Origin: a virus
Taxonomy: Duplodnaviria; Heunggongvirae; Uroviricota; Caudoviricetes
Strand: one strand, 5' to 3'
Virus record (IMG/VR): IMGVR_UViG_2537561714_000016
Coordinates: 1-7,747 of that record
DNA: 7,747 nucleotides
Each line of letters begins with the position of its first letter. The first letter of the stretch is position 1. The notes beneath the pieces are model-generated. The model ran no database searches, was not told the origin of the DNA, and worked only from the letters and a program-made list of their open reading frames with translations. Shown piece after piece: positions 1 to 3,808 of the stretch. The position numbers and the translations under genes are program-made.

Positions 1-101
1 TTTCCCAGGCGAACCAGCACCTCCGCACACGGCTGTGCCACATCACGGATATCCCCGGCCCGGGCATCATGCGTGCCCTGCAGATACTGGATTTTTGCCA
101 T
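1..101 (-). CDS. Partial ORF (3' end outside window) starting 45 nt downstream of the capsid gene; hypothetical head-morphogenesis protein
   Basis: ATG at 99-101 (minus) opens a frame reading MAKIQYLQGTHDARAGDIRDVAQPCAEVLVRLG that runs off the window start. Co-oriented with the capsid gene, but no clear SD directly upstream and only 33 codons are visible. Confidence 0.25.
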   Translation of the reverse strand, partial: MAKIQYLQGTHDARAGDIRDVAQPCAEVLVRLG

Positions 102-145
102 CAGTTACTGCGGGAAGCTAGCGCCTCCCGCCCTCCTCATCAGAC

Positions 146-2083
146 TCAGCCGCCGGACGCAGTTCCGTAGTTCACACCGGTGATCACAGCCACCGCCGCG
201 GTACGGCGACGACGCCAGTTGATCCAGCGCTCCGCACGGATGGCCACGCTGCCGGTCTGGAACATGGAGACCAGCTCCACCGGTGACGGTGTGCTGCTGT
301 CGCTGGTCGGTTCAGACTGCATCTCCAGTGACGCTTCACGGGACATATCCACCGCCACACCACCGTCATCCGCCAGATAAATATCCGGCGCATTCACCAG
401 TACCAGCTGGTCACCCACATACTGGGAGACAATCACCGGCAGCCCCTGGAAGGTCCCGCCCAGCAGGGTCATGTCCGGATATTCCTTCTGCCCCAGCGCA
501 TTTTTACGCATGGACAGCGCCAGGGCATTCGTGCTGGACATCAGCCAGACCGCACCGGTGGGCTGCAGATTTGCCGTCACAAACTGGCCAAACGCGGCCT
601 CGGCATCCGCATCCGGGTTACCGGTTGATGCCGTGCCCTTCACATCATGGGTGATGGACGCCGGGGAGACATCTGCCACTGCGGCTTTTTTCGGGTCCAC
701 AAAGTCTGTATCCAGACGCGCCACCACCGCTTCCGCCAGCGCATTACGGACCAGTGCATCAGCAGCCGGACTGGAAAAACGGATCAATTCTTCCGTCAGT
801 ACCGCAATGGCCGACACCTTCGCATGACTGAAGGTGATGGATTCAAAATCAAACTTCGTCAGGGGTTTTGCCTTACCCTCACCCACCCAGCCGGCAGCAC
901 CGCCGGACACCTGGGCGTGCACACGGATATTGAATGGCACCTGACGAAGTGCAGGGATCCCGCCCTGACCAAATCGCCCGATAATGGTCTGCGGACGCAG
1001 GTAATCAATAAAGTCCTGTGCGTATTCCTGATATTCAGACAGGCTGCCTGCCCACTGCGGATCCGTGGTGGTCCCCGCGCCCACTGCCGATTTCAGGACA
1101 TGATGCAGACGACTGTCATCCGGATACTGACGACGGGCCACTTCCAGGGCTTCAGATCGGACGCCTTTAGCCGCAGCCAGCGATTTGGCAAAGCGGGCGA
1201 AGCCAATCCCCTTATCCAGTTTCTGCTCCACACGGATCACCGGCGCAGAAGCCACCGCGGCCACATTCCCGTTACCGGCCTGTTTCACCGGCTGCGCCGT
1301 GGCGGCCTTACCGGCTTCCAGTTCACGCAGGCGCTTCAGGTGCGCATCCACCTGACGGATTTCCGCTGCGGTGTTGTCGTAATGCTCTTCCTCCTCCACA
1401 TCCAGCGTGCGCCCTTCCTCTGCGGCTTTGGTCATGACCTCCTCAAGGGAGGCTGCCAGCGCTGCACGCTTGTTTTCAAAACTTTTAATCTGTTCGCCAA
1501 TATTCATTATGGTCTTTTCCTTATGAAAAACGGTTGTTGACTGTGCCGCAGCGCCGGCAGAAGATGCGATTTTCACCACCGGTTTCCGGTTGCCGGACGC
1601 GGCAGAAAACGGGCGGTCGTAAGATTTAATGGTCCGGATGGTGCATTCCGCATTCGCGGGCACGGTGACGGCAGACACCTCCATCAGTTCCCAGCGCAGA
1701 AAATGCAGTCCGCCTCCGTCCAGAAAGGTGTATTCATGGGGACGGAAGCCCACGGACAGCCCCCTGACCAGCCCGGTCTTAATGGCCGCCCAGACCTCAT
1801 CCAGCCGGGCAGCCAGTTGCGACGGCATATCCGGTACGGGCTTCACCAGTGTTGCCGTGATTTCCAGCCCTTCGCTGACCCGGCGCACCGTACACTGCCC
1901 CACCGGGCGGGAATGGTCATGCTGCCAGAGAAACGGGATCGCACTGCCAAACTCCGCGCCCTCCGGCTCCAGGATGTCACCATCCCGATCCGGAGAAGGC
2001 GTTGACGCAATCCCGGTGATCACCCGTTCATCCTCACTGAAGGATTTCACCGTCAGCAGGGAACAGGCCCGTTTAAGAGTCAC
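146..2083 (-). CDS. Fused prohead protease - scaffold-like coiled coil - HK97-fold major capsid protein
   Basis: 645 codons. N-terminal ~160 aa carry HK97-family prohead protease (S78/U35) hallmarks (FLWQHDHSRPVG, GLSVGF, ELMEVSAVTVPANAE). Middle is a charged, helical segment (EQIKSFENKRAALAASLEEVMTKAAEEGRTLDVEEEEH, LKRLRELEAGKAA). C-terminal ~370 aa resemble HK97-type major capsid proteins. GTG start at 2081-2083 sits 5 nt after a perfect AGGAGG. Confidence 0.85.
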   Translation of the reverse strand: MTLKRACSLLTVKSFSEDERVITGIASTPSPDRDGDILEPEGAEFGSAIPFLWQHDHSRPVGQCTVRRVSEGLEITATLVKPVPDMPSQLAARLDEVWAAIKTGLVRGLSVGFRPHEYTFLDGGGLHFLRWELMEVSAVTVPANAECTIRTIKSYDRPFSAASGNRKPVVKIASSAGAAAQSTTVFHKEKTIMNIGEQIKSFENKRAALAASLEEVMTKAAEEGRTLDVEEEEHYDNTAAEIRQVDAHLKRLRELEAGKAATAQPVKQAGNGNVAAVASAPVIRVEQKLDKGIGFARFAKSLAAAKGVRSEALEVARRQYPDDSRLHHVLKSAVGAGTTTDPQWAGSLSEYQEYAQDFIDYLRPQTIIGRFGQGGIPALRQVPFNIRVHAQVSGGAAGWVGEGKAKPLTKFDFESITFSHAKVSAIAVLTEELIRFSSPAADALVRNALAEAVVARLDTDFVDPKKAAVADVSPASITHDVKGTASTGNPDADAEAAFGQFVTANLQPTGAVWLMSSTNALALSMRKNALGQKEYPDMTLLGGTFQGLPVIVSQYVGDQLVLVNAPDIYLADDGGVAVDMSREASLEMQSEPTSDSSTPSPVELVSMFQTGSVAIRAERWINWRRRRTAAVAVITGVNYGTASGG

Positions 2084-2094
2084 ATCAGCCTCCT

Positions 2095-2120
2095 GAAAAT
2101 AAAAAAACCGCCGCAGCGGT
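2095..2120 (-). terminator. Intrinsic terminator-like hairpin plus T-tract between terminase large subunit and capsid gene
   Basis: Minus-strand RNA: 5-bp GC-rich stem ACCGC/GCGGT (2107-2120) with 4-nt loop, followed by TTTTTTTATTTT (2095-2106), then the capsid SD. The stem is short, so it may be a partial terminator or a stability element. Confidence 0.35.
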
Positions 2121-2146
2121 TCATGATGGTTACAGTGTGAACAGGG

Positions 2147-3808
2147 TTATATGAAAAAAACCGCATATTCTTTCTTTTTCGGTTCCGGGTTAAGGGACAT
2201 CAGGGAGACCGCATTGAACAGCGCCATCAGCGGGTCAATTTTTCCCCGTCCACTGGCCTGTTTGGTGATAAGAATGGCGTTACCTTTAGGCTCCACCCGG
2301 GCATTGCCGACACACCAGGCCATCAGGGGCTGGTCACCATGCACCAGCACCCCTTCAGCCAGTTTGCGCTCGGTGGTTTTAATGGCCCCGCCCAGTTTCC
2401 AGCCCTGGCTTATCCCCACCACAATTCCGTCGGGGATCCCGGCTTCCGCCAGTGAATCCAGAATCTGCCCCACCCCTGACGGGTCAATACCGATATGGTC
2501 CAGTAACTCAGCCTCATGAATGCGACGCACATATTCCGCCACTTCCGCCGTGTCATCCCCGACACGCCGGACAATGGTCATATCTCCACAGGCAACAAGA
2601 TCCTGAAACCGGGACGCCTCGCTCTTCCGTCGGACCACCGCGGTTTCATGCGCCCAGGCATGGCCCCAGCCCAGCCATTCGCGGGTTTCCCTGTCACGGC
2701 CAATCACGTACATTCCCAGCAGATCATCCAGGCCCCCGCCGTCAATCCCCACCGTCACCACATCAGCGCGCTGCAGGATATCGTCCAGGCTGACGCGCCT
2801 GCCCTGCTGCTCCCAGAAATCCGCACCCGCCCAGCGGTCAGAACGCAGGGCAAGACCAATTTCCACATTGGCATGTTTTGACATGAAGCCACGAAATGCT
2901 TCCTCACCAGCCTCCCGGGCTTTACGGTACTCCCGGTACAGAAAAGCCTCATCCACCGAATAACCGAGATTCGGGTTAACCATGGCGAGGTTTTCCATCA
3001 GCAGGTGAGCCCCGCTTTCCACCATTTCAGGAGGATGCTCAAAAATCACCGGCAGAAAGTGCGGATCATGAATTTTGCCGTCACGGACATCCCGGGCGTA
3101 CTGCAGTTTCTGTCTGAACCCCCCGGCTGGCGGCTCATTCGACTGGGTGGTCGTATACACCACAAACCCTTCCGGGCGGGAGGCAAGGCCGCCTATGGCT
3201 TCACGTAACATGTCCTCCGCTTTGTACTGCTTGCCAAATAACCACAGTTCATCAATCAGCGTCCCCACGGACTTGATACCGGATACCGTATTCGGATCGG
3301 CAGCCACCACCTTCAGGGTGGTGTCCGTCACCCTGTGGGTGATGGTCCGGATATGTGTCTGCACCTGACAGAGGTCATCCAGATCATCGTCCCGTCGTAC
3401 CATATCCCTGGCAGGGTTGAAGGCGTTAGCCGCCACCTCCACGGTCGGGGCCAGAATGGTGTAGCCCGCCGCCTGCCGCCAGTTCAGTAACAGCGCCGTC
3501 ATCATGATCCCGGCAGCCAGCGTGGACTTGCTGTTTTTCTTGGGGATAAGGATAAAAACTTCCTTGATATGGCGTACACCGGTCTGCGCATCGTAGGAGC
3601 CAAACAGGGCCGCCACCAGGTCAAACACCCACTGTGCGCAGGACTCCCCGAACGTCGGGCTGCCCGGTGCATCCACAATCCGCAGTTGTTTAAAAATCGC
3701 CAGGGCATGTGCGGCCTGCTCCGGATAAATCGGAGCCGGAATAATCGACAGCCCCTTTTTCAGGCGCTCTGCCCAGTCCGGGCAGGCCGTGCTCCACACA
3801 GGTATCAT
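2147..3808 (-). CDS. terL: Terminase large subunit (ATPase plus nuclease)
   Basis: 553 aa. Walker A-like IPKKNSKST near the N-terminus and a C-terminal RNaseH-like nuclease region with acidic motifs (VVTVGIDGGGLDD, IGIDPSGVG). ATG start overlaps the terminase small subunit stop (ATGA at 3805-3808). Confidence 0.9.
   Translation of the reverse strand: MIPVWSTACPDWAERLKKGLSIIPAPIYPEQAAHALAIFKQLRIVDAPGSPTFGESCAQWVFDLVAALFGSYDAQTGVRHIKEVFILIPKKNSKSTLAAGIMMTALLLNWRQAAGYTILAPTVEVAANAFNPARDMVRRDDDLDDLCQVQTHIRTITHRVTDTTLKVVAADPNTVSGIKSVGTLIDELWLFGKQYKAEDMLREAIGGLASRPEGFVVYTTTQSNEPPAGGFRQKLQYARDVRDGKIHDPHFLPVIFEHPPEMVESGAHLLMENLAMVNPNLGYSVDEAFLYREYRKAREAGEEAFRGFMSKHANVEIGLALRSDRWAGADFWEQQGRRVSLDDILQRADVVTVGIDGGGLDDLLGMYVIGRDRETREWLGWGHAWAHETAVVRRKSEASRFQDLVACGDMTIVRRVGDDTAEVAEYVRRIHEAELLDHIGIDPSGVGQILDSLAEAGIPDGIVVGISQGWKLGGAIKTTERKLAEGVLVHGDQPLMAWCVGNARVEPKGNAILITKQASGRGKIDPLMALFNAVSLMSLNPEPKKKEYAVFFI

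Follow-up and report, generated by a model that had tools for sequence, protein, structure and literature searches.

The head genes of bacteriophage HK97 follow the order terS, terL, portal (gp3), protease (gp4) and capsid (gp5), with an associated HNH endonuclease. The DNA analysed here, a stretch of 7,747 nucleotides comprising positions 1 to 7,747 of the IMG/VR virus record IMGVR_UViG_2537561714_000016 (Caudoviricetes), carries a head module of this family in which the gene for the terminase large subunit (terL) is followed directly by the capsid gene, with no portal gene between them. This whole stretch is referred to below as the window; coordinates are window positions, and the genes of relevance all lie on its minus strand. 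The closest described systems are the phages 2851, 1717, Stx2a_WGPS6 and YYZ-2008 of the genus Pankowvirus together with the Marienburgvirus phage BP-4795, which show 95–99% nucleotide identity to the window over the packaging and head region and have an identical gene order. More distant relatives, namely Pseudomonas phage PAJU2 (genus Detrevirus) and phages of Burkholderia, Ralstonia and Moraxella, share the same order.

We consider it very probable that the window covers the beginning of the late operon, for packaging and head, in a long-tailed lambdoid Escherichia coli prophage of the Shiga toxin (Stx) type, of the Pankowvirus/Marienburgvirus kind, and, as part of the same reading, that its portal gene follows the capsid gene, in an old variant of the HK97 head module which is fixed throughout the lineage. 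The window is 98.7% identical over 94% of its length to the Stx2-converting phage Stx2a_WGPS6 (WGPS6 below) and 98.2% identical to phage 2851, and a prophage in the chromosome of E. coli STEC799 matches its positions 1–4400 with 99.8% identity. It belongs to the late module of the Pankowvirus/Marienburgvirus type by this identity and by full synteny over the lysis, HNH, terminase and capsid genes. Compared with these phages the head module shows no difference, whereas a segment at positions 5194–5681 differs. The likeness to HK97 extends over the S78 protease, the TIGR01554 capsid, the TIGR01537 portal, a gp6-like connector and a gp10-like protein, all of the same families, and an HNH gene here also stands beside the terminase genes. 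In contrast with HK97, the portal gene follows the capsid gene rather than standing between terL and the protease gene, the protease, a scaffold-like segment and the capsid protein form one polypeptide, and a conserved small gene precedes the portal gene. The module of the window thus does not follow the canonical order terL–portal–protease–capsid, which is a typical but not a strictly defining trait of the HK97 family.

Position of the portal gene and content of the capsid gene

The terL gene (2147..3808, minus strand, 553 aa, stop codon at 2149–2147) was recognised by the Pfam families TerL_ATPase and TerL_nuclease and by PHROG 9/7622; it is of the Terminase_1 type, with an N-terminal ATPase domain (PF03354, 43.8 bits) and a C-terminal nuclease domain (PF20441, 39.8 bits), both above the cut-off. 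It is separated from the capsid gene, which starts with GTG at 2083, by an intergenic gap of 63 nt (2084..2146, minus strand) that holds only a hairpin with a T run and the Shine-Dalgarno sequence AGGAGG ahead of the start codon, and is too small for any gene. A Pfam scan of nine open reading frames (ORFs) of the window, terL and the capsid gene included, returned no portal family, and a portal hidden Markov model (HMM) built from four relatives found nothing above 9 bits in the six frames of the window. The initial annotation, which had noticed that a portal gene was missing between terL and the capsid gene, was therefore correct in this observation.

As one of two explanations, that annotation had placed the portal gene downstream of the capsid gene and past the window start, and this is where it is found in all annotated relatives: a gene for a portal of the HK97 family begins about 67 nt beyond position 1, an offset obtained by aligning the window to WGPS6. 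In the records of WGPS6, 2851, STEC799 and BP-4795 the genes run terS, terL, capsid fusion, small ORF, portal, Ad1 adaptor, head closure, HK97 gp10-like protein, tail terminator and tail genes. The portal protein of these relatives matches PF04860 at aa 54–382 (272.6 bits, E = 5.9e-81) and TIGR01537 (portal_HK97) with 349.5 bits against a cut-off of 112; a sequence search of the PDB with it retrieved the solved portal chains 9lbn, 8cez ("Portal protein"), which we take to be the HK97 portal, and 6tba ("HK97 family"). With this gene just past the window, the portal family of an HK97-type head module is present alongside the two others found in the window, an HK97-family capsid and an S78 protease with conserved residues. 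By analogy with its relatives, the portal gene of this copy is predicted to follow the capsid gene, about 67 nt beyond the window edge. In the order fixed for the lineage, a portal-adjacent protein comes between the portal and the head-tail connector, ahead of the head closure protein and the tail genes.

The capsid gene (146..2083, minus strand) encodes a fusion protein of 645 aa recognised by Pfam, TIGRFAM/NCBIfam and PHROG 617. Its N-terminus carries a Peptidase_S78 domain (PF04586, aa 48–152, nt 1942–1628, 34.7 bits, cut-off 21), in which His55, Ser110 (in the motif GLSVGF) and Glu135, invariant in 63 of 63 relatives, are candidates for the active site; its C-terminus carries the Phage_capsid domain (PF05065, aa 386–635, nt 928–179, 54.8 bits, cut-off 24.2), and the whole is matched by TIGR01554 (major_cap_HK97) with 78.8 bits against a cut-off of 27.5. 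The middle part, at about aa 190–290, is charged, helical and scaffold-like. The stricter NCBIfam equivalog TIGR01543 gave 46.4 bits, below its cut-off of 59. A protein of the same kind of architecture, with the protease ahead of the capsid, is described by NCBIfam NF045541 ("prohead protease/major capsid protein fusion protein"), and protease/capsid fusions are therefore a recognised class; the window protein itself falls outside that family, with 54 bits against a cut-off of 525 and a match limited to aa 48–287. The homologue in PAJU2 is annotated in its record as "prohead protease fused capsid protein". Unlike the window, the Burkholderia and Moraxella phages have protease and capsid as separate genes.

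Distribution and age of the gene order

Among 5426 complete E. coli genomes, the stretch from terS through terL to the capsid gene was found in 1258, at 3147 places and with up to seven copies per genome. A 1.4 kb junction probe, made up of the 3' end of the capsid gene, the small ORF and the 5' end of the portal gene, was contiguous in 1244 of these 5426 genomes, at 2926 places. Beyond E. coli, a tblastn search of phage records with the fusion protein recovered homologues in Pseudomonas phage PAJU2 (48% identity), in Burkholderia (39%), and in Ralstonia and Moraxella (35–38%). In PAJU2, Burkholderia vB_FKKS2 and Moraxella Mcat6 the genes are ordered terS, terL, protease and capsid, one or more small ORFs, portal and connector, and all three portals match PF04860; the portals of the relatives from these four genera are 39–45% identical to that of the E. 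coli lineage.

The gene order was further surveyed by a capsid-alignment scan of one genome per bacterial species, followed by mapping of terL, protease, capsid and portal with HMMs. The 69 loci so obtained belong to Alpha-, Beta- and Gammaproteobacteria, besides a small number of other groups. In 68 of the 69 the portal gene shares the strand of the capsid gene and lies downstream of it, and terL lies upstream of the protease gene in all 60 loci in which a terL was detected, in most cases adjacent to it and in a few 0.5–1.1 kb away. A single ORF holds protease and capsid in 34 survey loci, and 28 have them in separate ORFs. One locus, L075 from Cupriavidus sp. D384, stands alone in having a capsid homologue with neither protease nor terL nor portal detected within 7 kb of it, and may represent a remnant or an arrangement of another kind.

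Since the order is common to relatives at 35–50% protein identity in Alpha-, Beta- and Gammaproteobacteria, it is best read as old and fixed in this lineage. The arrangement is already known through public genome annotation; in the literature searched for this gene order or for a protease–capsid fusion in Stx phages no explicit statement was found, the papers giving general module content or nothing on order.

Mosaicism and alternative explanations

Identity between the terL of the window and those of the distant loci is bimodal, being either 42–70% or about 22% (or undetectable); the terL of PAJU2 and of the Burkholderia phages, with 23–28% identity, is of the different type. The similarity of terL is uncorrelated with that of the capsid (rho 0.20) or the portal (rho 0.00), while capsid and portal similarity are correlated with each other (rho 0.45, p = 1e-4). 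Because terL similarity varies on its own and capsid and portal co-vary, the boundary between terL and the protease is read as a historical mosaic joint, at which terL types have been exchanged in front of a co-inherited protease–capsid–portal block, with the order kept. The second explanation offered by the initial annotation, an atypical order possibly due to recombination at a mosaic junction, therefore holds in part: the order is atypical when set against HK97 and lambda and the joint is historically mosaic, but the recombination does not belong to this prophage, the order being fixed in the lineage (68 of 69 loci, PAJU2, Burkholderia and Moraxella). This order is standard in a described phage group, which, as the same annotation had allowed, makes the feature unremarkable.

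A recent recombination or deletion at the terL–capsid junction, which would have removed or displaced the portal gene and left a locally rearranged and possibly defective module, would fit with the role of the terL–protease boundary as a module joint in the history of the family and with the mosaicism of the window elsewhere, since positions 5194–5681 are unlike WGPS6 and 2851. We nevertheless regard such an event as very improbable, as the same order and a gap of the 63-nt type occur in 1244–1258 E. coli genomes, in phages 2851, BP-4795 and PAJU2 and in 68 of 69 distant loci, and no recent event can account for an order common at 35–50% protein identity. Only marginally less improbable is that this particular copy is a truncated prophage remnant, from which the portal and downstream genes were lost just past the window start. 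The sequence past position 1 is unseen, the junction is found at fewer places in E. coli genomes than the terS–terL–capsid stretch (2926 vs 3147), and several relatives carry IS629 or IS1203 insertions in terL; against this, terS, terL and the capsid fusion are full-length intact ORFs, the small ORF shows no interruption before the window edge and the junction is kept in about 93% of the copies in complete genomes. Even were this copy truncated, the conclusion on the gene order of the lineage would be unchanged. Least probable of all, to the point of being scarcely credible, is a portal function hidden as a cryptic or divergent domain in the 645-aa protein or in another ORF of the window, a possibility that the initial annotation had also named and for which nothing speaks beyond the unusual length of the fusion. 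The domain and HMM scans do not bear it out: the 645 aa are wholly explained by protease, scaffold-like segment and HK97 capsid, the portal HMM of the lineage reaches at most 9 bits in six frames, and a strong HK97-family portal stands directly downstream in all relatives.

The preferred reading, that of an old and fixed order with the portal gene after the capsid gene, is itself weakened by several points. The portal gene of this copy is deduced from relatives instead of being read from its own continuation, and the roughly 7% deficit of junction places relative to terS–capsid places in E. coli means that some copies may be truncated. Prior knowledge of the arrangement rests on public annotation rather than on a published description, and the maturation pathway outlined below is modelled on that of HK97 and on what the depositor of the PAJU2 record noted.

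Proposed working of the module

The domain content, the invariant protease residues and the gene order with its conservation were directly established, and the steps that follow are modelled on HK97 biology and the PAJU2 annotation. The head genes would belong to a single Q-dependent late operon. A portal dodecamer, of twelve subunits, would nucleate a procapsid made of the fusion protein, whose N-terminal serine protease (His55, Ser110 and Glu135) would then cut off both itself and the scaffold-like segment. The terminase, consisting of terS and terL and probably acting with the HNH protein, would dock on the portal and package DNA from a cos region upstream of terS. As all of these products would come from one late transcript, the place of the portal gene should make no difference to assembly.

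Small ORF between capsid and portal

At the edge of the window, positions 1..101 (minus strand, ATG at 101) hold the first 33 codons of a conserved gene of 73 aa, annotated in relatives by the Prokaryotic Genome Annotation Pipeline (PGAP) as WP_001063023. Its place in these relatives is between the capsid and the portal gene, and the reading frames of small ORF and portal share about 55 nt at the portal start; the partial ORF does not extend into a portal-like protein, as had been thought possible, and is a separate gene in a frame other than that of the portal. Public records differ on the frame of the small ORF, some starting at ATG 101 (73 aa) and others at ATG 70 (61 aa, in a different frame). 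An iterative HMM search seeded with the E. coli and Moraxella sequences placed homologues immediately downstream of the capsid gene in 28 distant loci, and the frame starting at ATG 101 is favoured because of this conservation. The gene also lies at 5880–6101 of locus L003. At their N-termini the small proteins share a motif of about 35 aa, behind which comes a basic tail, and neither the 73-aa protein nor its homologues belong to any family in Pfam or NCBIfam. A resemblance to the N-terminal domain of ribosomal protein L9 was considered and dropped, as it had no support at E<=10.

The interval between capsid and portal genes, usually 0.25–0.5 kb, is widened to about 4 kb in three survey loci (L009, L026 and L027) and measures 1.3–1.8 kb in four others (L028, L032, L038 and L042), which suggests that this spot tolerates inserted cargo genes.

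Hairpin in the terL–capsid gap

The hairpin in the gap between terL and the capsid gene (2122..2105) is terminator-like, with a 7-bp stem, a 4-nt loop and a T run, and lies directly 5' of the Shine-Dalgarno sequence of the capsid gene. Similar hairpins with other stem sequences occupy the same place in 10 distant loci with a terL–protease gap of at least 50 nt, including loci from Enterobacter, Marinobacter, Pseudomonas, Moraxella, Acinetobacter and Achromobacter; distant loci with a gap of 40 nt or less, mostly from Alphaproteobacteria, have no such hairpin. The fold of the gap is not significantly more stable than that of shuffled sequences (z = -0.88), and the 13 terminator-like sites of the whole window are no significant excess over the 8.2 +/- 3.2 expected. 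Support for the hairpin consequently comes from its position and its conservation in relatives and not from folding energy. Termination, stabilisation of the RNA or its processing are possible roles.

Portal-adjacent gene and poly-G tract

Outside the window, the portal gene of E. coli prophages exists in two forms, either as one ORF of 859 aa or as a 454-aa portal followed by a protein similar to PAJU2 ORF007, the two ORFs overlapping at ATGA. The forms differ by a single G in a poly-G tract, with six residues in the fused form (G6; WGPS6 and 2851) and five in the split form (G5; BP-4795 and STEC799). The tract lies about 1345 nt into the portal gene, roughly 1.4 kb beyond window position 1 (about 7590 in locus L001, and also 7990–8020 in locus L076 and in locus L003). 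With exact-flank probes, the G6 form was found at 1369 places in 782 complete E. coli genomes and the G5 form at 913 places in 487.

In contrast to the 859-aa fused form of E. coli, portal and next gene are separate in the PAJU2, Burkholderia, Ralstonia and Moraxella relatives, and the same is true of 50 of 51 distant loci. PGAP calls the split G5 form "frameshifted"; as distant relatives have two genes at this place, the split form may be ancestral rather than a pseudogene. The ORF007-like protein always follows the portal in this lineage, a homologue having been detected in 51 of the 69 loci (in L001 at 6355–7650, as the C-terminal half of the 859-aa ORF; PAJU2 ORF007 itself corresponds to 6054–7058 of L004). 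In E. coli this part contains a tandem repeat of 162 nt (54 aa) in 3.3 copies, with one copy more in BP-4795. No Pfam or NCBIfam family was assigned to the ORF007-like protein, which gave only sub-threshold Pfam matches such as a CBM_5_12-like C-terminus, and the PDB sequence search with the portal matched the portal domain and not the extension.

A broader interpretation, which we hold only tentatively and think rather unlikely, would see the order terL, hairpin, protease–scaffold–capsid protein, small protein, portal and portal-adjacent protein as a distinct head architecture found throughout the proteobacteria and not formally described. The structural block would then be a unit of inheritance apart from the terminase and possibly an expression unit of its own, and the portal would be coupled to the next gene, with the poly-G tract as a possible heritable switch in portal composition.

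Other genes and features of the window

The terminase small subunit gene terS (3805..4368, minus strand, 187 aa) was identified by Pfam Terminase_2 (PF03592, 34.3 bits) and PHROG 641 (E = 2e-68). Upstream of the terminase genes lies the gene for an HNH endonuclease of 121 aa (4658..5023, minus strand; Pfam HNH, PF01844, 27.6 bits, cut-off 21.4), a label also given to its counterparts in the records of WGPS6, 2851 and BP-4795. The gap between the HNH and terS genes contains a cluster of TGTTAAC repeats (4444..4564, not assigned to a strand), identified by counting motifs against shuffled sequences: all five matches in the window, in both orientations, fall inside these 121 nt, compared with 0.67 expected for the whole window, and none of 200 shuffles reached five. 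This cluster is a candidate recognition region for terS, as a terS-binding site or cos region. The linear records of PAJU2 and Burkholderia vB_FKKS2, as deposited, open just upstream of terS.

Further upstream, also on the minus strand, the ORF list and Pfam place a lysozyme gene cut by the window end (7676–7359), an Rz spanin gene (7374–6925) and a gene for a KilA-N protein (6722–6225); the ORF list adds an ORF of 85 aa between the KilA-N and HNH genes. Positions 5194–5681, between a DUF3950/YnfO gene and the 85-aa ORF, form a segment of 488 nt with low GC content (0.40–0.43), in place of which WGPS6 and 2851 have about 272 nt of unrelated sequence. The 488-nt segment, a local mosaic patch, matches prophage PPyecE_EH1910 with 99.3% identity.

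Conclusions

In conclusion, the absence of a portal gene between terL and the capsid gene is confirmed, the portal gene is located as the first explanation of the initial annotation had it, and the feature is ordinary for its lineage. It carries little weight as a discovery, the arrangement being already present in the public annotation of medically important Stx-converting phages and in roughly one in four complete E. coli genomes. Prophage finders and annotators expecting the order terL–portal–protease–capsid should not call a module of this kind incomplete, and the label "frameshifted", applied by PGAP to the G5 portal, may mark an ancestral state instead of a pseudogene. This lineage shows that head genes, once rearranged, can keep their new order across large evolutionary distances, with terminase genes being exchanged ahead of the block.

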